A DNA stretch of 64,000 bases, taken from the NCBI GenBank assembly GCA_930991035.1, contig CAKNRV010000003.1, positions 1,097 through 65,096 on the forward strand. Reading direction: 5' to 3'. Within the stretch, counting starts at the first letter, position 1. Every line of letters begins with the position of its first letter. The notes below the pieces were generated by a model that was given only the letters and a program-made list of their open reading frames with translations, made no database searches and had not been told where the DNA came from. The position numbers were made by a program, and so were the translations under genes. Shown here one piece after another: positions 17,293-41,588 of this stretch. The stretch comes from an uncultured Clostridium sp. Its GTDB lineage: Bacteria > Bacillota > Clostridia > TANB77 > CAG-508.

Positions 17293-19215
17293 TTATTCAG
17301 CTTTTGGGAAAGAATCTGCCCAGGTTCTTCCGTGCATTGCAGAACTATTTAATTTTTGCTCGTCAGTTAATGGACCTGTTTCGTGTCCTCCTGCTGGAGT
17401 TGCATCATAATGTCTCCAAACTCCATTTTGATATACTAAGTTCCAGTAATGTGTTCTATCTGTTGTATATATTAATTGATTCCTTATTCCTGCTTTATTC
17501 AAAGCTTTTTGTACAAGTAATGCGTGTACATAACAGTTTCCAGAATAGTTTGTTAAGCCATACCAAACTGGGTCATCTCCACCCCAACTAGAGTTATATC
17601 CAATTTTATTTTTTATAGTTGATACCATTCCTTGAACACTTTGTCCTGCTAAATAGCTGTTATAGAACTCATTAAATTTGTTATTTGTATCTTCTTGGTT
17701 GTGGTTTACTGTAACTTTTCTATTTACAGTTGTAGTATTTCCCTTTTTATCTTTGGCAGTATATTTGGCATAATATGTACCTGCCTTAGATAAATTTACG
17801 TTGCTTGTATCAACTGTAAAACTACAAGAGCCATCTCGTGCATCTACTGCACTAACTCCCCTTTTAAAGTTCACACTCGAATTTTTAGTTACACTCATAC
17901 TGCTTACTCCATAAAAAACTGGACCATCTGTATCTTTTCTAATCGTAAGAGTAGTTGTTTTTTCAACTTTATTTCCGTATTTATCTTCTGCTTCTATTAC
18001 AATATCTTGTGTCCCTATTTTAGAATAATCGATTTCAGTTTTTAAAGTGGTCTTTACATCTCCTGACGCATCTTTTACAGATTCAATAAAATCATTTTTT
18101 CCATCCACTTTTTCGTCGTCATATATGGTAACTTTCTTTAGTTTTAAGTCTGGTGCTTTTGTATCTTTTATAACTATTGTTACAGTTTCTTTAGCACCAT
18201 TTATTTCAGATACAATTTCGTACTCTCCTACTTCTTCTTTATTTATTTTATCTATATCAGATTGCTTGATTGAATCTTTATCTTCTTTATAATTTAATAA
18301 AATATCCTTTTTTTCTAATTCGTCTCCAAGCTCTAATGTAACTGATTTTTTTACTCTTGAGACGTTTAAATCACATACGTTTGTTGTTGTGTTTCCTGAT
18401 GCATCTTTTACCTCTACTGTTATTTGATAAGTTCCTATTTCATTTATTTCTGGTGGATTTACTATGCTTGTTGTCATTTCTGCCAAATCTGTTTTAGACT
18501 TTATAAAATCGTCCGCATTTAATTCATAATCCACATATTTATCTAGGTTTTGGAATTCTACAACTGGTGCTACTGTGTCAACTATATTTAAGTTTACAGT
18601 TTGTGTTATTCCGTCCCACATTAATTCTACTGTATAGCTTCCAGCTTTTGAAAAGTCAATTGTAGAAATATCTGTCACAAAACTAGCTTTTTCTTTATAT
18701 TGACTATCTTTTAAGAATTGATCCAATGTTACGCTTTCTGTTCCCAATTCAATATTTACATCTTGAAATTTTGGACTAAATCTTAAATATGCCAAATATC
18801 CTGCAACACCAATAATGACTACTAGAAGCACAATTATAACAACGCAAATTGCTTTCTTCTTACCTTTTTTCTTGTTGTTCTCATTTTCCTCACTTCTAAG
18901 TTTGCGTGTTTTTCGCTCATTTTCTTCTATATATTCTATTGTTATATCTTCTTCTGCGTGTTTAGCCCTTTTCTTGTTTTTTTCATTCTTTTGAGTTTTT
19001 GCATTATTTTTTTGTTTACTGTCTATTTTAGCTTGCTTTTTTTCTATCTTATTTTCTTTAAAACGTTTGCCTTTTTTATCATTTATATTTACAGTTTCTT
19101 TTTTGCTATCACTTTGGTCTTTGCTAATATTGCCATTATTCTCAGCATTCTCATTGTTATTCTCAGTTTCTAATTTTACTGTGCCTTCTTCATTTTCTAC
19201 TTTTGTTTCATCCAT
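17293..19215 (-). CDS. Surface protein: K/E/N-rich cytoplasmic tail, TM helix, repeated Ig-like domains, C-terminal transglutaminase-like cysteine-protease-fold domain
   Basis: Repeated DT(V/K/D)(A/G)P domain starts (DTVAPVVEF, DTKAPDLKL, DTDGPVFYG). The C-terminus GNCYVHALLV...THYWNLVY...WRHYDAT fits a Cys-His-Asp transglutaminase-like core. Confidence 0.65.
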   Translation of the reverse strand: MDETKVENEEGTVKLETENNNENAENNGNISKDQSDSKKETVNINDKKGKRFKENKIEKKQAKIDSKQKNNAKTQKNEKNKKRAKHAEEDITIEYIEENERKTRKLRSEENENNKKKGKKKAICVVIIVLLVVIIGVAGYLAYLRFSPKFQDVNIELGTESVTLDQFLKDSQYKEKASFVTDISTIDFSKAGSYTVELMWDGITQTVNLNIVDTVAPVVEFQNLDKYVDYELNADDFIKSKTDLAEMTTSIVNPPEINEIGTYQITVEVKDASGNTTTNVCDLNVSRVKKSVTLELGDELEKKDILLNYKEDKDSIKQSDIDKINKEEVGEYEIVSEINGAKETVTIVIKDTKAPDLKLKKVTIYDDEKVDGKNDFIESVKDASGDVKTTLKTEIDYSKIGTQDIVIEAEDKYGNKVEKTTTLTIRKDTDGPVFYGVSSMSVTKNSSVNFKRGVSAVDARDGSCSFTVDTSNVNLSKAGTYYAKYTAKDKKGNTTTVNRKVTVNHNQEDTNNKFNEFYNSYLAGQSVQGMVSTIKNKIGYNSSWGGDDPVWYGLTNYSGNCYVHALLVQKALNKAGIRNQLIYTTDRTHYWNLVYQNGVWRHYDATPAGGHETGPLTDEQKLNSSAMHGRTWADSFPKAE

Positions 19216-19311
19216 TTGTTTTCCCCTCTTTATTACTTTCTACTAAATTGTTCGTTGATTAGATTTTAAGTGAAGTTTAACAATGCCCTCATTGTAATCC
19301 TTTTCAGCCTT

Positions 19312-20553
19312 TTACTCCGGAATAGCACTACAACACTCTGTAATATAGTATCTACCTGTACTATAATTGTTTCCAATTTCTTTTCTTGCATCTAAATCAT
19401 TAAAATGCCACCATTCAGAACATAGTGGAGTAAGTCCCGCTTCCACACAATAATTACGTAATCTTTTTGCTCCGTCTGTCATTCCACTTGCCATTGGTAC
19501 ATCTTCCCACGCTGTTTTAGAATTACTATCTACACCATATTTCATACTTATTGCTTTATTACTTAACTCGTGCATTTGTGTAGGCATTTGTTCTTCTGTA
19601 TAATCTGTAATAGACATATATTTATAATTTCCGCAAGTTTTTACTTTGTAATTATTTACTTTAACCAAACTTACATCCATAGCAATTCCTCTTTGATGGT
19701 TTGAAAGAACTTGTGCTATAAACCATCCTTCATTCCATCCGCCACCATTTATGCCATTATACACGGTTTTATTTTCATTCATTAATTTATTTAAGTTTGT
19801 AGAAACTGCAACTTGTGCTTCATAAGGTCTATATGTTTCATATATTTTTAAAGAATATCCTTCTTCTAAAGCTAATTCTTGAGCTTTCATTATTTTTTTA
19901 GCCATAGCATATATAACCGGCATCATATACTCGTTTTTTTCTAATCTTTCATTATACGCCTTATTATTGTATAACTGTTTTCCTGTAACATTTGGAATAT
20001 CTATTTCAGAAGATTTAAATAGCGAGCTATAACTATTTGTATCGTCATATACTATTGATGGTATAATATCTGGTAAATTTACCATACAATATAAAGTACT
20101 TATCCATCCAACTGTTCCATTTACATCAACTTTTAACCAATTTCCATTTTCTTCTAATATTTTAAATCCTGTACCTGCATTTATCTTTTTTACTATTGTA
20201 GACTCTGAACTATTACTTGCTCTAATATTAGAATTTATTGATGCATAACCAGTAGCACCATTTATAGGCAATTCAAAATAGAAATCGTAATCTGGAATAT
20301 ACGTCTTGTCCAATTCATTTAAATCTATAAGGCTACCACTTGCATTTGAATCTGTGGAATTATTTGATACGTTATTTTGCTGTTGTGAACCTATCTCTTG
20401 GTTCACATTTGTGTTATCTGCTACATTTTCAAAATCGTATCTATAACTATTTGATTGATTAGTTAGCAAAAACAAAAAGATAATACTTAATAGTCCTATA
20501 ATTATTAAGCACACTAAGAAAATTGCTACCCCTTTTAATTTTCTATAATTCAT
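19312..20553 (-). CDS. SH3b domain plus M15 family (VanX / D-Ala-D-Ala dipeptidase-like) zinc peptidase
   Basis: SH3b-like NGNWLKVDVNGTVGWIS. M15 motifs YRPYEAQ, SNHQRGIAMDVS and SEWWHFND. Confidence 0.8.
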   Translation of the reverse strand: MNYRKLKGVAIFLVCLIIIGLLSIIFLFLLTNQSNSYRYDFENVADNTNVNQEIGSQQQNNVSNNSTDSNASGSLIDLNELDKTYIPDYDFYFELPINGATGYASINSNIRASNSSESTIVKKINAGTGFKILEENGNWLKVDVNGTVGWISTLYCMVNLPDIIPSIVYDDTNSYSSLFKSSEIDIPNVTGKQLYNNKAYNERLEKNEYMMPVIYAMAKKIMKAQELALEEGYSLKIYETYRPYEAQVAVSTNLNKLMNENKTVYNGINGGGWNEGWFIAQVLSNHQRGIAMDVSLVKVNNYKVKTCGNYKYMSITDYTEEQMPTQMHELSNKAISMKYGVDSNSKTAWEDVPMASGMTDGAKRLRNYCVEAGLTPLCSEWWHFNDLDARKEIGNNYSTGRYYITECCSAIPE

Positions 20554-20625: not shown

Positions 20626-21285
20626 CTACATTTGATTTCTTCTAGCAATCAAATTATTAATCTTACTTACTTGCTCTTCTGCCATATCATAATTTTTGCT
20701 TTGAACTGCTACTTCAAGCACTCCTATTGCTTGCATTATGTCATTATCAATTTGTGTTGAATCTTCTTGTAATGTTACATTTGCATTTTTTACAGAGTCA
20801 TAAGCTTTTTCTATTTTCTTATATACTTCTCTGTCGTCTACCGATTGCATAATTAATTCTATTCTCTTTGCCATATCAGTTACTTTGTTATAATTTGCTT
20901 TATCAATATTAGTTATATTTTTCGATGCGTTGTTAGCCATTGTATTAGTACACATAACTATTGCAAATGATCCTAGTAAGATTACTTGAACAATTACAGA
21001 TAATGTAACACTTTTTACATTGATTAGTATAAATAGTGCACTGATTATAAATGTTAGCACTGAATATACTGCTACTATTGGGAATCTTGCATATCCTAAA
21101 AATTTCTCACTTTTATCTCCTGTTATTATTCCAGCTCCCCAGAATACTATGATTGATAAATTTAATCCTGCAATATTTATCCATCTAGCTGTTGTGTATT
21201 CTTTTAAAGATAAAAATACTACTACATTAACTATTGCTAATGCAACAATTCCAATTATTCCATATAACACTTTATTATTTTTCAT
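20626..21285 (-). CDS. 4-TM membrane protein with a C-terminal helical cytoplasmic domain
   Basis: 219 aa. Its ATG at 21285 shares a base with the stop of the upstream SPFH gene, which suggests translational coupling. Confidence 0.65.
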   Translation of the reverse strand: MKNNKVLYGIIGIVALAIVNVVVFLSLKEYTTARWINIAGLNLSIIVFWGAGIITGDKSEKFLGYARFPIVAVYSVLTFIISALFILINVKSVTLSVIVQVILLGSFAIVMCTNTMANNASKNITNIDKANYNKVTDMAKRIELIMQSVDDREVYKKIEKAYDSVKNANVTLQEDSTQIDNDIMQAIGVLEVAVQSKNYDMAEEQVSKINNLIARRNQM

Positions 21286-22481
21286 TAATCTTCCCTCCTA
21301 GTTCCGCAATTTCCACAGAATTTAGCTCCTGATGCAAGTTTTTCTCCGCAGTTTTTGCATACACTTTCTTCTATTTTTGCTCCACAATTTCCACAGAATT
21401 TACTATTTGCAGGAATTTCACTTCCGCATTTTGGACATTTTATATTTTTACTTTCTTGTTCTGTTGTAGCTGATTTTGGTGCAAATCTAGATACTCTACT
21501 TGTTCCAGCATTTTGTTGAGTTTGTTGTTGACTTACTTGCTCATTTTGCATTGGAGTAAATAATTGGTTTGCTAAACTACTAAATACCCCTGCTGAAGCT
21601 GCTCCCATTCCTATACCTGCTCCCATAGCTGCCATTCCTCCAGCTCCAGGGTTATTAGCAACATCTTTTAACAATTCCTTTGCTGTTAATCTACCCCACT
21701 CATCGCCTTGAACATTTAACTCTATCTTTCCAGCATGGGCTCTTGCATACGCTTCATTAATTGTTCTATAATTTGGATCATCTTCTGGAATTGATATGTC
21801 TGATACATAGAAGTTTACAAGTCTTATTCCATATTCATCCAATATTTCTGCCAAATCATTTTCTACACTCTTTCCTATTGTCTCTAATTCTGTATTCATA
21901 TCTAGGATAGTGTACTTGCATTCTTTCATTGTTTTAGCTATTGTAACTTTTATTTTAGATTGAAATGCAGACCTAAATTGTTCTTGTATTTGCTCTTTTG
22001 TAAAGAATTCTGTATTTCCAACTAATTTTACAAAGAACTTTTTAGAATCTTTTATTTGAATTGCATAACTTCCTCTTGCTCTTACTCCAACAGCAAATCC
22101 ATATTCAGCATCTCTCATTTGAATTGGAGAATCCGTACCCCATAGCATTTCTAGTTTGTGTGCTTTATCAATAAAGTAAATCTTACAGCTAAATGGGCTT
22201 TCTCCTCCTGTAACCATTTTTCTTAAGCCATTAATAAAAGGAAAGTTCTGTGTGTTTAAAGTATGCTTACCTGCTGTAATTGTTCCTACTACTACTCCAT
22301 CTTTCACAAATAGTGCTTCTTCCGATTCCATAACAATTATTTGCGAATTAGTATTAAAATCTTCTTTTGTGTGTTTCCACACAAGTAAATCGTCAATAGG
22401 TCTGTCATTTTTTATTACACTATAAAGTTCCATACCTTTTTTCCCTTCTTCATTATTTTCTTTGTTTCCAAAACCAAACAT
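21285..22481 (-). CDS. SPFH-like (COG4260, YdjI-type) protein with a C-terminal double zinc ribbon
   Basis: LLVWKHTKEDFNTNSQIIVMESEEALFVKDGVVVGTITAGKHTLNTQNFPFI ... MLWGTDSPIQMRDAEYGFAVGVRARGSY follows the YdjI/COG4260 pattern. A Q/G/A-rich linker leads to CPKCG..CGNCG and CKNCG..CGNCG. Confidence 0.8.
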   Translation of the reverse strand: MFGFGNKENNEEGKKGMELYSVIKNDRPIDDLLVWKHTKEDFNTNSQIIVMESEEALFVKDGVVVGTITAGKHTLNTQNFPFINGLRKMVTGGESPFSCKIYFIDKAHKLEMLWGTDSPIQMRDAEYGFAVGVRARGSYAIQIKDSKKFFVKLVGNTEFFTKEQIQEQFRSAFQSKIKVTIAKTMKECKYTILDMNTELETIGKSVENDLAEILDEYGIRLVNFYVSDISIPEDDPNYRTINEAYARAHAGKIELNVQGDEWGRLTAKELLKDVANNPGAGGMAAMGAGIGMGAASAGVFSSLANQLFTPMQNEQVSQQQTQQNAGTSRVSRFAPKSATTEQESKNIKCPKCGSEIPANSKFCGNCGAKIEESVCKNCGEKLASGAKFCGNCGTRRED

Positions 22482-22515: not shown

Positions 22516-23118
22516 TTACCTATATCTTCCTATTCTAAGGCTAGTACATTCCGTAAATCCAAATGCAAAATCTAAATCTACTAAGCCTTCTGATACGTCT
22601 TCTTCTATTTTTTTCTTATTAAATTCTTTTACTTTTGTTGTATCTTTTAATACATTTTTCAATTTATTATATAATTCTTCATCTGTTTGTATTTTTCCTT
22701 CTTTTATTCTTTCTTTTGCCATTTCTAAGGCAGTATTTGAAGCAGAAATTATGTTTTCTTTTGCTTCGTCCCTTAGTAATTCAGATTTTCTTTGCTCCAA
22801 AGATTTGTCTTTCCATAGGTTTGTCTGTTCTTCCATTATGTCATTTACTTTATCTTCCATTCCTGCTGCTACATAACTTTCAATGCTGTCTCTATACACA
22901 TAGTTTAATTGTTTTTCTAGTTTGCTTCGCATTTCTTCTTTTTCGTCTTGGCTTACATCTTTTGTTGCTTCTGAAGTTACTTTTTCAATTAATTCCGCCA
23001 TTTTTTTATTTACTTTTTCTTCGTCTACTTCTTTTTCATTCTCCATCGGTCCACTAGTTTCTAATAATTTATTAAGTTCTTCTATTTCAGCGTTTATATT
23101 TTCCATAGTTAATATCAC
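22516..23118 (-). CDS. E/K-rich coiled-coil protein, function unknown
   Basis: 200 aa (GTG at 23118). ATG at 23106 with AGGAG upstream is the more likely start. No motif recognised. Confidence 0.6.
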   Translation of the reverse strand: MILTMENINAEIEELNKLLETSGPMENEKEVDEEKVNKKMAELIEKVTSEATKDVSQDEKEEMRSKLEKQLNYVYRDSIESYVAAGMEDKVNDIMEEQTNLWKDKSLEQRKSELLRDEAKENIISASNTALEMAKERIKEGKIQTDEELYNKLKNVLKDTTKVKEFNKKKIEEDVSEGLVDLDFAFGFTECTSLRIGRYR

Positions 23119-23156: not shown

Positions 23157-25538
23157 TTAATGTATATTTTTATTTGCATTTACAATCTTTAATGTTTCTA
23201 ATTTTTGTAATATTTTGTCTGCTTCTTGATTTGCTACTGTTCTTACATATTCGTCATTAGACTCTACTGCCAAATCGCAAAATTTACTATACTTTTCCCA
23301 TATTTCTTTACCTGATGGTCCAAAATTTTGCTCAAATTCATTTATTATAATTCCTGGTTGATTTTCAAAATATGCTTTATATAAATTACCTTTTCCTACA
23401 ATTCTTTCTAATTGTTCTGTTCTTCTAACATTAGGAGAATATGCCACATTATCTTCTTGATATTCGTCTTTCATAGCTCTCTTTGCGTAAAATTCAGTTA
23501 TTCCTTCATTTACTTGAGTATCTTTTCCTTCTATTGAAATACCTCTTCTTGTTATAATATCATTTTCACCCAAATATACATCATTAGCTGACATTTGATG
23601 TATATTCTCGTGTATTGTAGTATGTTTTATTTCTCTTGCATCTTTTCCTTCTACTATAATATAGCTTTTCTTACCATTATTAAATCCCAATATGTTTCTA
23701 GAGTATTCATCCCTTGACATACTATTATATGTTTCCTCCGCTTCTTGGTATCCCATATTTTTAACAGTATCAGATAATGGCCTTTCCATTTTTTGTTTAA
23801 ACCTATCTGTATTACTTAAATAGTTCATAATGTTTTCTTCTTCAAAAAATTGATTTATAGTCTCTTGTGTATCTTTTAAATTTTCATTACTATCGTTAAT
23901 TTTTTCTTGCAATTCTTTTGCTTCTCTTTCTTCTTTACTTAAGAATATTCCTCCAAAGATACCTTCATTTACTTCTTGTGAAGCATCTGGTTGCACTATT
24001 TCCTGTTTTTCTGTAATAGTTTCTGCTCTATTTATATTATTTGCATTTATTTTAGTATTTGCATTTTCTGTATCACTGATTGCATCTTTCCATTTTGGAT
24101 CATCATTACCTATTTCCCTTTGACCGTGGTCCATAGGTTTTGGTTTTTTATTTGGGTCATAATTTATATCGTCTGGTTTTGGTGTAGTATCTCTCATTCC
24201 AGCTAGATAGTTTCTAAAGTTCTTAGGATCATCTTCTCCTACATCATTTTTTACGTTTATTGGAGCATCTTCTGGCTTTTCCTTTTTCTTTCCACCAAAA
24301 ATTCCTTTTATTCTATCCTTAAAGCCTTTTTTATTACTTGTTTCATTTGAATTCTTTATGTCAGTATTATTATTAACCTTGGCTTCACTCTTTACATCAT
24401 TACTCCTAAAACCTGTTACAAAAATAGGCGTATCATAAATAGGTGTATCAGACATTTGAGGCTTATCTATATTAATATCATTAATATTATCCCTTATTTC
24501 TGTATCATTGTATAATTCTTTGTCAGGGACTATCTCTCTATCTCTTTCTATTACTTTATCTGCATCGTCATAAACGTCATTGTCTGCCTCTAGATTCTCG
24601 TCTTTTTCTTCTGGTATCTCTCCAGTGTATTCTTCTGACGGACCATCTGCTCCTTCAGCATCATCTTCTTCTGGAGTCTCAGGTATATCTCCATTGCCTC
24701 CTTCGTCGTCTAAATTGCTGTCATCTCCATTTGCTACATCATCTGTGTCATTACTTTTTTCTGGTCCATCTAATTCGTCTTGTTCTGGTGTTTCACTCGT
24801 TTCACCATTTTCGTCTTCTGGCACTTCGTTCGTGTCTTCTTCTACTTCTTTATTTTCACTGTCTTCCTCTTCTGGCACCTCGTCCGTGTCTTCTTCTACT
24901 TCTTTATTCTCGCTGTCTTCCTCTTCTGGCACTTCGTCTGCATCTTCTTCTACTTCTTTGTTTTCGCTGTCTTCCTCTTCTGGCACTTCATTTGTATCAT
25001 TTTCTTCGTCCGCGTCTGCACCTGTATCAAGTGCCTCGTCTTCTTCAACATCTGGTTCCGTATCTGTTCCCACATCAGTATTTATTCCTTCATCTTCATT
25101 TATCTCTGTGCTAGTATCTGTTTCTGAACCTGTATCCAATCCTTCGTCCTCAGTTACATCTTCACCAGTGTCTGCATCCGGTTCTGTATCTAATCCTTCG
25201 TCTGCACCCTCGTCAGTTTCTGTGTCTACATCTGAACCGGCATCTAACTCTTCGTCAGTTTCTGTGTCTATATCCGAGCCAGTGTCTAGCCCTTCATCTG
25301 CTCCTTCGTCTACTTCTGTGTCCATATCCGAGCTAGTGTCTAGCCCTTCGTCTACACTTACGTCTGCTTCTGTATCCATTTCTGAGCTAGTATCTAGCCC
25401 TTCGTCTGCACTCACATCGGCTCCTGTATCTACATCTGAATTAGTATCCATTCCAACATCTGAACTCACATCAGAGCTTGTATCCATACTTGTATCAGAA
25501 CTCATATCTGTGCTTGTGTCTGAAAATTCATCCCCCAT
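23157..25538 (-). CDS. Very acidic repeat protein with a C-terminal HExxH / NEGxTE zincin-like domain
   Basis: Start moved to ATG 25538 (AGGAGA 6 nt upstream). The first ~330 aa are D/E/T/S-rich degenerate repeats (DTSSD, DTETDEG, 18-aa EVPEEEDSENKEVEED units). HENIH is encoded at 23598-23612 and NEGITE at 23493-23510, 30 residues downstream. No signal peptide or TM helix. Confidence 0.75.
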   Translation of the reverse strand: MGDEFSDTSTDMSSDTSMDTSSDVSSDVGMDTNSDVDTGADVSADEGLDTSSEMDTEADVSVDEGLDTSSDMDTEVDEGADEGLDTGSDIDTETDEELDAGSDVDTETDEGADEGLDTEPDADTGEDVTEDEGLDTGSETDTSTEINEDEGINTDVGTDTEPDVEEDEALDTGADADEENDTNEVPEEEDSENKEVEEDADEVPEEEDSENKEVEEDTDEVPEEEDSENKEVEEDTNEVPEDENGETSETPEQDELDGPEKSNDTDDVANGDDSNLDDEGGNGDIPETPEEDDAEGADGPSEEYTGEIPEEKDENLEADNDVYDDADKVIERDREIVPDKELYNDTEIRDNINDINIDKPQMSDTPIYDTPIFVTGFRSNDVKSEAKVNNNTDIKNSNETSNKKGFKDRIKGIFGGKKKEKPEDAPINVKNDVGEDDPKNFRNYLAGMRDTTPKPDDINYDPNKKPKPMDHGQREIGNDDPKWKDAISDTENANTKINANNINRAETITEKQEIVQPDASQEVNEGIFGGIFLSKEEREAKELQEKINDSNENLKDTQETINQFFEEENIMNYLSNTDRFKQKMERPLSDTVKNMGYQEAEETYNSMSRDEYSRNILGFNNGKKSYIIVEGKDAREIKHTTIHENIHQMSANDVYLGENDIITRRGISIEGKDTQVNEGITEFYAKRAMKDEYQEDNVAYSPNVRRTEQLERIVGKGNLYKAYFENQPGIIINEFEQNFGPSGKEIWEKYSKFCDLAVESNDEYVRTVANQEADKILQKLETLKIVNANKNIH
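24810..24992 (-). repeat. 54-bp in-frame tandem repeat (~3.3 copies) inside the acidic protein gene
   Basis: It encodes EVPEEEDSENKEVEED(A/T)(D/N) three times, then a partial copy. The DNA copies are near-identical (cttctggcacttcg..gtcttcttctacttctttatt..). Confidence 0.9.
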
Positions 25539-25646
25539 TATTTTCTCCTTTCCTTCTTGAGGCACTAAAGTAGAGCTACAAATAAATTACTTACAATCGT
25601 CACTCTACCTTTTCTGTACCTTTTATATTTTTTATATTATTCTATC

Positions 25647-29611: not shown

Positions 29612-30439
29612 TTATTGCATTTTTTTGTCTCTAATTAAATTACGCATTGCAAAAATTTGGTCAGCGATTTCTTTTTTATCAACAGAACCTTCTGTATAAG
29701 TTCTAAATGCTCCACTATAACGTGTTCCAGCTAAAATAACAGAAACATATTCATTAATGTATCTTACATATTTTTTCTTCTTTGGAGCAAATTGCTTATC
29801 ACATACTTGAGATGTTGATACAGCTTCTATATCTTTGTAGAAGTATTCACTTGTTCCAGATTCATATACTAATCCTGTTGCTATATCTACATTTTCCCAA
29901 TAAATATATAATTGAGAATCACTGAAATAATAAACAGTGTTATGTAATAATGTGTATCTTAATTTGTCGTCAGAGCCAACTTTTACAAAGTATTTTGGAT
30001 CATCATCATTTTCCATTAATTGTTTTTTAGTATTCTTTTTGTTTAGCAATTTACCAAATAATCCTTTAGTGTTTTGCTCAAATCGAATTTTATCTGATGC
30101 TGTTATAGTTCTTGGTGCCATACCAGATGTTGCTATTGGGTCTATTAAAGAAACTTGCTCTTTAACAATTCCTAATCTTTCTAATGCTCTTGTTTTTGCT
30201 TGCTCTGCTTCATAAGCCATTGCCTTATCAACATCTTCTTCATGTGTAAAATCACTAAAGAATTTGTTTTTTATCCATAAAACTATTGCAGCAATTACAG
30301 CTACAACTCCTAAAAATCTAAAGAAACCTAATGGTACAAAGAAACATACTATACCAATAATAAGTACTAGCAATGGTACTACTGATTTTTTACCTCCAAA
30401 GTATGGTCTAATGTTACTACGATTAAAATTTTCTTGCAT
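29612..30439 (-). CDS. Membrane protein (two N-terminal TM helices plus a soluble domain), function unknown
   Basis: 275 aa with hydrophobic segments VVPLLVLIIGIVCFFVPLGFF and LGVVAVIAAIVLWI. No motif recognised. Confidence 0.6.
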   Translation of the reverse strand: MQENFNRSNIRPYFGGKKSVVPLLVLIIGIVCFFVPLGFFRFLGVVAVIAAIVLWIKNKFFSDFTHEEDVDKAMAYEAEQAKTRALERLGIVKEQVSLIDPIATSGMAPRTITASDKIRFEQNTKGLFGKLLNKKNTKKQLMENDDDPKYFVKVGSDDKLRYTLLHNTVYYFSDSQLYIYWENVDIATGLVYESGTSEYFYKDIEAVSTSQVCDKQFAPKKKKYVRYINEYVSVILAGTRYSGAFRTYTEGSVDKKEIADQIFAMRNLIRDKKMQ

Positions 30440-30662: not shown

Positions 30663-31262
30663 CTAAATAGCTAAATTAGGGTCAAATCCATCTATTTTTA
30701 GAATTTCTGCAAGCATTCTAATATCTTCTTGTGTTACTGAGCTTGATGCTCTTTGTAGTTCCTCTTCATAACTTGGTTCTTGTTTTAATCTTTTTAATTG
30801 ATAGTAATCATATTTTAAATATGCAATAAAATAGCTAAATATTCCTCTATCTTCTAACATTCTAGCAGTATTAGTTAAATCTATTGCTTGGTCAACAATC
30901 TGCCTTGTTTGGATAAATGGTCTTTTACCTTTTAGCAGACATACTGCATCCCAGAAATAAGCTTCTGGATTATCTATACTTTCTTCAATAGCTTTATTGA
31001 ATTTTTCTTCTGCCTTATCGTATGCATTTAATTTTAATAAGCACATACCCATTGATAGATTAATTTCTGGATTATCAGGGTGTTCTTCAAGTGTTTTTTG
31101 ATATGTCCCTTTGTATTGATTAAGATCTTTCATATCCATACCATATACACTATTAAATGTAGTTATTACTACTGGTCTACCACATGATTTACAATTTTTA
31201 GCAGATGTATCGACTGGTGCACCACATCCTGGACAAGTAATGTTTATAACTTCTAATGCCAT
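30663..31262 (-). CDS. Zinc-ribbon plus TPR protein (architectural paralog of 28632-29453)
   Basis: Start set at ATG 31262 (GGAGAGGAAG upstream). MALEVINITCPGCGAPVDTSAKNCKSCG is followed by TPR-like repeats (NLSMGMCLLKLNAYDKAEEKFNKAIEESIDNPEAYF). Confidence 0.7.
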   Translation of the reverse strand: MALEVINITCPGCGAPVDTSAKNCKSCGRPVVITTFNSVYGMDMKDLNQYKGTYQKTLEEHPDNPEINLSMGMCLLKLNAYDKAEEKFNKAIEESIDNPEAYFWDAVCLLKGKRPFIQTRQIVDQAIDLTNTARMLEDRGIFSYFIAYLKYDYYQLKRLKQEPSYEEELQRASSSVTQEDIRMLAEILKIDGFDPNLAI

Positions 31263-31372
31263 TATATTCTTCCTCTCCGTTAGTTTTAACAAAAATATTG
31301 TAACATATTTCGACAAAGATTGCAATATGTAAATTTCATAAATCTTTTGTATTTATACATATATTTTTCAGC

Positions 31373-39787: not shown

Positions 39788-41588
39788 TTACTTAATTAAT
39801 TCTTGGAATTCTTCAGCAGAGATAACCTCTTTGTGCATTAAAGCTTCTGCTACTCTGTCTAGTTTGTCTCTGTTCTCTCTAATTAATTTTTGTGCTGTTG
39901 CATAAGCATTGTCTAAAAGTATTTTTACCTCTGCACCAATTGCATCACCAAATTTTTCTCCTAACATTTGTAATTCGTAAGGGTCTTTTTCTGTATCAAT
40001 TGATATTGGTCCGAAGCGTTTCGCTCATTCCGTATTTTGTAATCATATTTTTAGCGATATCTGTTGCAACTTCTATATCATTACTTGCTCCTGTTGAAAT
40101 ATCATTTAATACTATTTTTTCTGCTGCTCTACCACCCATAAGTGCTATCATTTTTTCTTCCATTTCTGTTTTTGAAATATAGTACTTATCCTCGTCAGAT
40201 TTATACATTGTGTATCCACCAGCTACACCTCTTGGTATAATTGATACTTCTTTTATGCCTTTTTGTGTTTCTAGTCTACTACTTACAATTGCATGTCCAG
40301 CTTCGTGATATGCAGTTAATTTTTTATCCTTCTCAGATATAACTCTACTATGTTTTTCAAGTCCTACTGTAACTTTCTTTACAGCCTCTTCTATATCTGA
40401 ATTGTTTATTGCATCGTGTTCATTTATTGTTGCTATAATTGCTGCTTCGTTTAAAATATTTGCAAGCTCTGCTCCAGTAAACCCTGCTGTATCTTCTGCA
40501 ATGCTTTTTAAGTTTACATCTTCTGCAAATTGTTTGCCTTTCGCGTGTATTTTTAATATTGCTTCTCTTCCTTTCATATCTGGAAGTCCAATTGTTATTC
40601 TTCTGTCAAATCTTCCTGGACGAAGTAATGCCTTGTCCAACATTTCTGGTCTATTAGTTGCAGCTAAAACAATTACAGTTTCGTCTGTGTCAAATCCATC
40701 CATTTCTACCAATAGCTGATTTAATGTTTGGTTGTTTTCTGACTCTGCTCCACCACTACTATTTCTTCTTGAACCTATTGCATCAATTTCGTCTATGAAT
40801 ACTATACAAGGAGAGATTTTTTTCGCTTTTTCAAATAGTTTTCTTACTCTTGAAGCACCTAGTCCTGCAAACATCTCTATAAATTCTGAACCACTCATAG
40901 AAATAAATGGAACATTTGCCTCTCCTGCTATTGCTTTTGCTATTAATGTTTTTCCAGTTCCTGGTTGTCCACAAAGTAGAACTCCTCTTGGAATTTTAGC
41001 ACCCATTTTATTAAATCTTTCTGGATTTTTTAAGAAATCCACGATTTCTATCATTTCATTTTTTTCTTCGTCTAATCCTGCTACATCGTCAAATTTTGTT
41101 TTAGATTTTGTAGTTTCACTATCATATACCTTGCCTTTATCTCCTAATCCTTGCATTTTAAAGAATAGTATGATAAGTACAACTAGCAATATAGTTGGCA
41201 ATACTGAGAAGAGTGCACTTGAAATTGATACAAAAACATTTGTCGGATTTTGGATTAACTCAAATTCAATTCCATCTTCCACTTTTTGATTAATAAGTTC
41301 CATAAATGCCTGTGTACTCGGAACTATTACATTTTTTTCCTCTTCTTCGTCACGTAGTTTTACTTTGATAGAAGAACTTCCAACAGTCATTTCTATTGAT
41401 TCTACATTGCCTTCATTTAATTGTGTTATTAATTCTGTATATGCTAGTTCTTTTTCTTCGGCACTTTCCCCATTTGCATATAAGAAATAGATAGCCACTG
41501 CAAGTATGATTATCAAAAAGACTAGAACTGCTAATAAAATATACTGTTTTTTGCTGTTCTTTTCGTTGTTTTTTTGTTTTTCGTCCAT
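39788..41588 (-). pseudogene. ftsH: ATP-dependent zinc metalloprotease FtsH, interrupted by a +1 frameshift near 40013
   Basis: The track ORF (39996-41588) contains Walker A GQPGTGKT, the SRH region and HEAGH, and ends ...KYGMSETLRTNIN*. Shifting one base after ETL gives GPISIDTEKDPYELQMLGEKFGDAIGAEVKILLDNAYATAQKLIRENRDKLDRVAEALMHKEVISAEEFQELIK* (stop at 39788-39790), the normal FtsH C-terminus. Confidence 0.88.

Follow-up and report, generated by a model that had tools for sequence, protein, structure and literature searches.

The 64,000-nucleotide (nt) stretch of DNA from an uncultured Clostridium sp. analysed here (contig CAKNRV010000003.1; in what follows, the window) carries on its minus strand, right after the gene of an ATPase of the HerA/VirB4 clade, a gene for a protein of 793 amino acids (aa) in which a polyacidic N-terminal array is joined by a linker to a zincin-like C-terminal head. 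On balance the evidence tips towards an effector of the polymorphic-toxin type, made of leader and array, linker and zincin head, which would have a cognate immunity protein, serve as the dedicated partner of the ATPase, travel in a mobile cassette and be exported to competitors. The features referred to below are collected in Table 1.

The open reading frame (ORF) list gives the effector frame from a GTG, with 802 codons (23157..25565). An ATG at 25538 has AAGGAG 6–7 nt on its 5' side and yields the N-terminus MGDEFSD, which is common to the full-length homologs; given the spacing of this ribosome-binding site (RBS) and the homolog-shared N-terminus, this ATG is the true start, and the coordinates of the gene in a preliminary description of this DNA are exact. 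That description had also raised the worry of a pseudogene or repeat artefact. Such an explanation, extended to an assembly artefact of the repeat region with an HExxH arising by chance, could appeal to the repetitive, low-complexity sequence, to the database homologs P0003, P0004 and P0007, which end early inside the repeats, and to the array of locus L003, which is broken by an assembly gap. The 793-codon frame is nevertheless intact and has a good RBS, the identical 793-aa protein (P0002) is recorded from 6 contigs in the protein collection, full-length homologs with the same ends exist at 78–88% identity, the catalytic residues are invariant down to 20% identity and the head domain is modelled with high confidence, so that the artefact is vanishingly improbable and is refuted for practical purposes. 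A 326-aa ORF on the plus strand (24580–25560) lies wholly within the conserved minus-strand gene and was taken for an antisense shadow frame of the repeats and not for a gene.

A search through 1.84 billion representative proteins, made with residues 545–802 of the GTG-started ORF, returned 86 homologs of the head, 44 of them below 1e-10. The domain lies at the extreme C-terminus in nearly all of these proteins, which are 100–1236 aa long. When 54 remote homologs are aligned, no columns are invariant other than H643, E644, H647, N677, E678 and T681 (793-aa numbering), and exactly these six recur as the invariant set of another alignment, of 23 sequences that come for the most part from loci fetched separately. 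The HENIH and NEGITE motifs lie where the preliminary description had placed them, the Glu of NEG standing 31 residues after the second His of HExxH, and conservation on this scale argues that HExxH and NE..T are not chance occurrences. An AlphaFold2 model built from the 23-sequence alignment (predicted local distance difference test score, pLDDT, 94.2; predicted template-modelling score, pTM, 0.91) consists of a short strand, a backing helix, two short strands, the HExxH helix (84–100), a variable hairpin, a helix led by NEGITE (124–142) and a helical bundle, which we take to be the element order of gluzincins, as in thermolysin-like enzymes. By this arrangement, the third zinc ligand would presumably be the Glu of NE, as in gluzincins. 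Thermolysin has NEAISD and M1 has NEGFA. The folded module spans ~240 aa (551–793), and is therefore larger than the ~170 aa first proposed.

Neither the whole effector nor the head matches a Pfam, NCBIfam or PADLOC family, the sole signal from these collections being a compositional match of the effector to SdrD Ser-Asp repeats. Sub-threshold Pfam matches of remote head homologs point to DUF1570 (E 0.014) and, for one homolog, to Peptidase_M1 (E 0.019). Searches of PDB sequences, with a single sequence and with a profile, gave nothing meaningful, and when the head model was compared by Foldseek the best PDB match had an E of 0.98, adamalysins gave only short local matches (E about 3–5), and the best match in BFVD was an IrrE-like peptidase (E 0.13). 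With the gluzincins (clan MA(E): thermolysin M4, aminopeptidase M1 and DUF1570-type) the head shares an HExxH helix followed by a helix with N-E-x-x-[ST]-[DE], as well as the order of backing helix, sheet, active-site helix and Glu helix. It differs in its spacing from HExxH to Glu, which is 21–31 residues because of the variable hairpin insert, in its small size of about 200 aa, in its helical C-terminal bundle and in matching no family model at threshold. It also has no GxMEN motif anywhere in the effector sequence, so that the effector is not an M1 member; the absence of a Pfam match for the effector and the E of just 0.019 for a remote homolog led to the same rejection of Peptidase family M1. 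The earlier gluzincin-like reading holds as far as the conserved HExxH...NEGxTE and the element order of the model are concerned; the part that tied it to M1 does not, nor does any other catalogued gluzincin family or significant structural neighbour in PDB or BFVD take its place. We read the head as a new, uncatalogued family of the zincin kind, the fold being assigned from motif and predicted topology with no significant structural match.

The same head occurs on unrelated N-termini. In protein P0012 (41% identical in the domain; locus L001) it follows PG_binding_1 and DUF4280 (PAAR-like) domains, and the gene adjoins two Phage_GPD/VgrG-like genes. At L091 an FtsK_SpoIIIE (EssC-like) protein of 1459 aa is immediately followed by a head protein with a helical N-terminus, and this in turn by another toxin that shares the N-terminal type. 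Heads with other, non-acidic N-termini follow DUF87/HerA-like ATPases of 1324, 741 and 832 aa (L099, L109–L111; L100–L106; L113–L114; L094), a hint that toxin modules linked to ATPases form a broader set. That the helical N-termini of these other zincin proteins belong to the LXG group of type VII secretion (T7SS) was considered and found no Pfam support. A head shared with other trafficking domains, as is usual for polymorphic toxins, is what the predicted domains display here, with the PAAR-like DUF4280 beside VgrG-like genes in one case and an EssC-like neighbour in the other.

Wherever downstream DNA was available, the gene after the head encodes, almost every time, a soluble 156–200-aa relative of the window's 200-aa protein (one has 355 aa). 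The window protein matches the downstream gene of the PAAR-type locus with a BLASTP E of 9e-13, and phmmer found ten such relatives after heads; a profile made from these ten members detects 15 of 17 downstream genes (E 3e-3 to 5e-65) and a fragment in L093, and almost nothing else among the 10,691 ORFs taken from all loci plus the genome of the window. The family is marked towards its C-terminus by [ILV]-S-E-x-[ILV]-[ILV]-D-[LFI]-[DN]-[FY], then 8–9 residues and S-[FLM]-R, and the window member, which is soluble, charged and helical, carries this C-terminal motif as LVDLDFAFGFTECTSLRI. ATPase loci that lack the zincin head also lack this gene. Since the toxin head is the sole thing common to the loci that have it, the small downstream protein goes with the head, which is presumably the signature of an immunity protein. 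Hydropathy reveals no hydrophobic segment in the window protein, which suggests that the toxin acts in the cytoplasm. From the sequence comparisons, head and downstream gene very probably form a toxin–immunity pair. The window's own genome has no orphan toxin or immunity cassettes and no further acidic-leader genes, and the cassette is present in single copy.

In a collection with one genome per species, 599 places were matched by pattern, and 578 of them, from about nine phyla, encode a relative of the ATPase. The 80 loci that were kept include Clostridia, Bacilli, Bacteroidales, Spirochaetes, Kiritimatiellia and Planctomycetes as well as Opitutaceae, Akkermansiaceae, Actinomycetota, Synergistota and Fibrobacteria; the gene-presence counts of Table 1 cover 87 loci. 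Ruminococcus albus AR67, Faecalicatena contorta ET55 and Bengtsoniella intestinalis BP47G are among the cultured bacteria that carry the cassette. A protein with an acidic start comes right after the ATPase in 62 of the 80 kept loci, and in addition at L003–L007. The strict start M-[DGSNEA]-[DE]-[DEG]-[FYLMI] fits 33 of these 62, the consensus going on with x-x-S-V-D-T-S-D, and the acidic proteins range from 67 to 1374 aa. Their other ends differ widely. Among the 40 complete acidic-start proteins, Pfam finds at the C-termini a DUF6782 metallopeptidase (4 members), Gln_amidase, a papain-fold toxin (3 members), Endonuclea_NS_2, WHH, Colicin-DNase and SprT-like (2 members each), and TNT and Peptidase_C39_2 (1 member each), while the zincin head is found at the window, L005, L080, L089, L090 and L096. 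These C-termini are, by domain prediction, classic interbacterial toxin domains, and a common N-terminus combined with differing C-terminal toxin domains, as in polymorphic toxins, is the pattern that the sequences of the family present. The type of N-terminus moreover tracks the ATPase subfamily: the acidic leader goes with the ~893-aa family, and the others with the 741-, 832- or 1324-aa DUF87 proteins or with the EssC-like one, while head and immunity gene are common to all these subfamilies. An N-terminus that co-varies with the ATPase, next to a shared head and immunity gene, follows the logic of a trafficking domain. Judged by these associations, the effector is likely to be a functional partner or substrate of the ATPase through its acidic leader. 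The preliminary description had offered, among other options, a polymorphic-toxin-like effector and a substrate or adaptor of the ATPase; the comparative data favour both.

Acidic proteins of other kinds accompany the ATPase as well. At L011–L015, whose ATPases are 60–73% identical to that of the window, an acidic mini-protein of 67–175 aa is encoded between the ATPase and SPFH genes, so that the toxin head is optional for the system; these loci and L006 have the short acidic protein only, with no small downstream gene. A second short class of 215–320 aa ends in a conserved tail, ...YDFEGYENQMVEAEARDYAQGFKDRL, which is not a toxin (L016, L021, L030, L038, L039, L044, L048 and L068), and is often followed by a gene of about 98–105 aa. 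L068 has both a member of this YDFEGYENQMVEAEARDYAQGFKDRL-tailed class and a 1144-aa acidic protein.

The array of the window protein has 149 D+E (44%) and 8 K+R among residues 1–335, which puts its net charge at -141. The residues D, E, T and S account for 63% of it, the remainder being mostly G, V, N and A; the acidic array of the preliminary description is thus real, though not composed "almost entirely" of these four residues. Two sets of 54-bp repeats are present, of which the degenerate one is older than the near-identical one. The length of the array differs between close homologs whose two termini agree, with MKEEETQETSSE unit counts of 1, 3, 3 and 10 in homologs of 614, 614, 686 and 758 aa, and effector proteins of the window type have 693, 709 and 793 aa; since metagenome assemblies may collapse repeats, the direction of this variation is safe and the exact copy numbers are not. 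Homologs therefore do keep the array and both ends while the number of repeats varies, as the preliminary description had asked. The FKDR basic patch of the linker was considered as a general post-array motif and rejected, since the motif search detected it nowhere but among close relatives and the short class without toxins.

The highest 19-residue Kyte-Doolittle mean in the effector is 0.25. There is no hydrophobic window of this length, and hence no Sec signal peptide and no transmembrane (TM) helix, in agreement with what had been noted before; the label "cytoplasmic" attached to the protein at that time rests solely on the missing Sec signal, and toxins exported by routes other than Sec look alike. 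DNA-mimic proteins of the Ocr/ArdA type are folded scaffolds that show carboxylates in B-DNA geometry, whereas the effector array is of low complexity and variable length, and nothing speaks for a rigid DNA mimic. We propose that the array is intrinsically disordered. RTX toxins of type I secretion, which are comparable by analogy only, likewise have a long acidic repeat region that would stay unfolded in the cytosol of a Sec-independent toxin. The effector differs from them in having no GGxGxD nonapeptides, in the N-terminal position of its array, which in RTX toxins lies near a C-terminal signal, and in that no ATP-binding cassette (ABC) transporter, membrane fusion protein (MFP) or TolC genes are dedicated to it.

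The ATPase lacks TM segments and contains one Walker A, at residue 424; its N-terminal domain, of 390 aa, is peculiar to it, and its C-terminal region is rich in Cys. Its AlphaFold2 model (pLDDT 87.9) was compared by Foldseek, which placed the core near archaeal HerA (4d2i, E 1e-14), near TrwK/VirB4 of the R388 type IV secretion system (T4SS; 7o43, E 6e-13) and the VirB4 C-terminal domain (4ag6, template-modelling score 0.74 on the target), and also near DndH and the SIR2-HerA, DUF4297-HerA and TdpAB defence complexes, the latter at E 1e-9 to 1e-11. The core is about equally near to these groups, and the fold therefore does not tell whether the motor serves secretion, or DNA handling or defence. 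Residues 583–722 match the C-terminal part of NCBIfam NF033849 "ser_rich_anae_1" (1163 positions) with an E of 3.5e-10, which suggests a family with a low-complexity region fused to a related ATPase.

The protein collection contains more than 2,590 relatives of the ATPase, with ~893-aa orthologs at 48–91% identity. In 60 genomes related to that of the window, 36 of which belong to its genus, no match at E <= 1e-10 was found, and together with the single copy in the window's genome this indicates an acquired island. No phage record among 50,697 matches the family, for which reason a phage origin of the cassette was rejected, and of 72,556 plasmid records 12 match, 5 of them typed conjugative. 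Only one of these plasmid matches is full-length (31% identity), the others being partial, and since it lies on a mobilizable plasmid, an origin from conjugative plasmids is unlikely too. That record is the Priestia megaterium plasmid pN447-3.1 (L118, 6599–13072), in which this distant ATPase relative is annotated as hypothetical and the gene behind it encodes an acidic repeat protein of 1135 aa that has SEKLDDLEQKETDQLTDTDTELQDD units and a C-terminus of helical make-up. Priestia megaterium is a cultured, genetically tractable host for this distant pair of ATPase and acidic protein.

The kinship of the ATPase is the starting point of the main rival explanation, an intracellular conflict system of the abortive-infection type, which we consider rather unlikely. 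The HerA-like ATPase would sense or pump invading DNA and the acidic array would occupy or regulate it, possibly as a nucleic-acid mimic; the head, kept in check by the downstream antitoxin, would be freed in the producer to stop phage, a scenario to which we give the same low credence. The matches of the ATPase core to the defence complexes fit this explanation, as do the weak matches to PADLOC HerA/mad8 models, effectors with nuclease and NADase-type domains, which parallel those of HerA defence systems, the sporadic, island-like distribution and the type II restriction-modification pair a few kb away in the window. The SIR2-HerA/Nezha and DUF4297-HerA systems also resemble the cassette in setting a HerA-like ring ATPase beside a swappable toxic effector. 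They differ from it in the ATPase, which at 896 aa has here its own N-terminal domain and Cys-rich tail, and in the acidic leaders, immunity genes, and membrane and SPFH partners of the cassette; known HerA defence systems have neither a dedicated immunity gene nor a polymorphic N-terminal leader. Membership in the HerA anti-phage group was rejected, since NF042943 (HerA_antiphage) scores 30.8 bits against a cut-off of 800. The PADLOC HerA matches cover the C-terminal third of the ATPase only, no partner gene matches and no PADLOC system fits the other genes. The lack of homologs in the phage records speaks against this explanation as well, and the same head and immunity pair beside PAAR/VgrG-like genes and an EssC-like ATPase belongs to contexts of export.

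On the minus strand the genes of the cassette are ordered as Zn-ribbon/TPR, 2-TM, ATPase, effector, immunity gene, SPFH-zinc ribbon and 4-TM, and no terminator-like site was found on this strand from the ATPase gene to the 4-TM gene. We propose that the cassette is horizontally mobile. The trio of an SPFH protein (Band_7_1), zinc-ribbon protein(s) and a small polytopic membrane protein resembles YdjG/H/I (SamGHI) of B. subtilis, which links PspA to the membrane (PMC8581546). Under a second rival explanation, which seems improbable to us, the cassette would be a membrane-maintenance system of this Psp/YdjGHI-like kind and not a weapon. The acidic protein would mainly play a structural or regulatory part in the membrane module, for example as a polyanionic brush or as an adaptor of the ATPase that binds cations or mimics nucleic acid, and the enzyme heads would be accessories acting on the envelope or proteins of the producer itself. 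Besides the trio, this explanation would account for the toxin-less acidic proteins of many cassettes. The heads, however, are of kinds typical for killing (DNases, TNT, glutamine deamidase) and have small genes matched to them downstream, the cassette contains no PspA gene, and its absence from close relatives tells against a housekeeping role. In contrast to PspA-YdjGHI, the cassette is tied to an ATPase and polymorphic toxins, and is mobile across phyla.

Table 1 Features of the effector gene and its cassette in the window. Gene counts are from jackhmmer searches with the window proteins over 87 ATPase loci, in which many missing cases are short contigs.
Feature	Position	Strand	Basis and remarks
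Acidic-leader zincin-type effector gene, 793 aa	23157..25538 (incl. stop codon)	-	ORF and translation, RBS, identical database protein
N-terminal leader MGDEFSDTSTDMS	25500..25538	-	Fits family consensus M-[DGS]-[DE]-[DE]-[FYLM]-x-x-S-[VST]-D-T-S-D
Polyacidic low-complexity array, residues 1-335	24534..25538	-	Composition
Degenerate 54-bp repeats, D-T-x-x-D-E-G-L-D-T units	25241..25488	-	Tandem Repeats Finder, 79-82% matches
Near-identical 54-bp (18-aa) in-frame tandem repeat, EVPEEEDSENKEVEED units, 3.3 copies	24810..24989	-	Tandem Repeats Finder, score 297, 91% matches
Linker, residues 336-550, N/K/D-rich, basic patch KKGFKDRIKGIFGGKKKEK	23889..24533	-	Conserved in close relatives only
Zincin-like toxin domain, residues 551-793	23160..23888	-	86 homologs and AlphaFold2 model
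HENIH (HExxH motif)	23598..23612	-	Invariant H, E, H; predicted active-site helix 84-100 of model
NEGITE	23493..23510	-	Invariant N, E, T, near-invariant second E; helix 124-142 of model
Immunity-like gene, 200 aa from GTG (196 aa if ATG 23106)	22516..23118	-	Homologs directly downstream of head
HerA/VirB4-clade ATPase, 896 aa	25647..28337	-	Pfam DUF87, AlphaFold2, Foldseek, hydropathy
SPFH (Band_7_1) protein with double zinc ribbon	21285..22481	-	Pfam E 1.5e-42; 66/87 ATPase loci
~220-aa four-TM membrane protein, start overlapping SPFH stop	20626..21285	-	Hydropathy; 58/87 loci
275-aa membrane protein with N-terminal TM region (2-TM protein)	29612..30439	-	Hydropathy; 48/87 loci
Zinc-ribbon and TPR protein	30663..31325	-	Pfam; 45-63 of 87 loci
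Paralogous zinc-ribbon/TPR-like protein, C-terminal TM helix	28596..29453	+	Pfam, hydropathy; 63 loci, matches overlap paralog

Known export systems resemble the cassette in part. Type VIIb secretion (T7SSb; EssC and LXG toxins) has in common with it a conserved N-terminal targeting region, swappable C-terminal heads, an immunity gene directly downstream, and an effector gene that adjoins a P-loop ATPase of the FtsK/HerA/VirB4 superfamily, and the same zincin head and immunity pair stands behind an EssC-like gene at L091. Membership in type VIIb was nonetheless rejected: by Pfam the ATPase is only DUF87, with one P-loop domain of HerA/VirB4 type and no TM or FHA region, and no LXG, WXG100, YukD, EsaA or EssB genes are found in the cassette. 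Further differences lie in the leader, which is here a disordered polyacidic chain and in T7SSb a helical hairpin, and in the partners (SPFH, Zn-ribbon/TPR and small membrane proteins) and the occurrence in diderm phyla too. Type IV secretion was rejected as well, since apart from the VirB4-like structure no other T4SS families are found in the cassette by Pfam.

For the cassette we suggest a sequence of events in which the ATPase would recognise the acidic leader and, spending ATP, would either thread the polyanionic chain in its unfolded state or hand it over, at a membrane site that the SPFH scaffold and the small membrane proteins would organise. Charge repulsion would keep the array unfolded and competent for translocation, and a ring motor made for gripping phosphate backbones could plausibly hold a chain rich in D and E. 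The toxin head would leave the producer and act in the cytoplasm of competitor bacteria, where it would most likely cleave a conserved protein of the target, while sister cells would be shielded by the immunity protein. That the effector is actually exported from the cell is a tentative proposal made by analogy, and it is with similar reserve that we name ATPase-driven export as the best reading. In its widest form, which is more speculative still, the cassette would be an unrecognised export pathway of monoderm and diderm bacteria, in which a ring motor of the HerA/VirB4 clade, a type otherwise known to pump DNA, threads a disordered leader resembling nucleic acid in its polyanionic character and drags swappable toxin heads, in the window the new zincin family, out at the SPFH site.

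Several points weigh against an exported toxin. [quoted passage not shown] The cassette occurs in diderm phyla (Bacteroidales, Planctomycetes, Spirochaetes, Verrucomicrobia) with no visible outer-membrane component. The ATPase has close relatives in defence systems, and its structural neighbours are split between DNA translocases and anti-phage HerA on the one hand and secretion VirB4 on the other. The proposed zincin fold of the head has no significant Foldseek match. Finally, a short acidic protein (67–320 aa) with no toxin head is found at many ATPase loci, and the existence of such toxin-less proteins implies a toxin-independent role of the acidic protein.

Among the export routes of polymorphic toxins listed in Zhang et al. 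2012 (PMC3482391) are the type II and type V secretion systems (T2SS, T5SS), T6SS, T7SS, PVC, TcdB/TcaC and others, and term searches in that paper gave no acidic-leader or single-domain HerA/VirB4 route. Full-text literature searches found no published description of a cassette of acidic leader and HerA-type ATPase, which bears out the earlier remark that no described architecture puts an acidic array next to a HerA-type motor. What the present analysis adds is the zincin toxin family with its matched immunity family, the occurrence of this pair in both PAAR/VgrG-like and EssC-like contexts, and the co-variation of N-terminus and ATPase. If the proposed export is correct, an acidic disordered leader, a HerA/VirB4-type ATPase and an SPFH scaffold would constitute a new trafficking class for polymorphic toxins, common in gut and rumen anaerobes and present in about nine phyla, which could shape competition in these habitats. 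The zincin-like toxin and immunity families would then be shared by T6SS-like or extracellular contractile injection system (eCIS)-like, T7SS-like and the present systems, and the pair would offer a tractable way to find a new intracellular protease target. The proposal also raises the question of whether a ring motor of the DNA-translocase type can handle a polyanionic peptide instead of nucleic acid. Even if export is the wrong reading, the strict pairing of the ATPase with a hyper-acidic protein stays a conserved and unexplained association.

Two further observations concern genes around the cassette. An FtsH-like gene of 530 aa lies on the minus strand at 39996–41588. Its Peptidase_M41 match spans profile positions 1–111 of 191, so that the protease domain looks truncated, which could be due to a frameshift, to a genuine truncation or to a fault of the assembly. 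Directly downstream of the cassette, at 17293–20553 on the minus strand, are encoded an SH3 and M15 (VanY-like) peptidoglycan peptidase and a surface protein with Ig-like domains and a transglutaminase core; these neighbours may be wall-remodelling accessories or may stand there by coincidence. Homologs of the M15 protein are found near the cassette in L052 and L068, and at L098 a transglutaminase-core protein and a Big_2 protein are encoded between the ATPase and the toxin.

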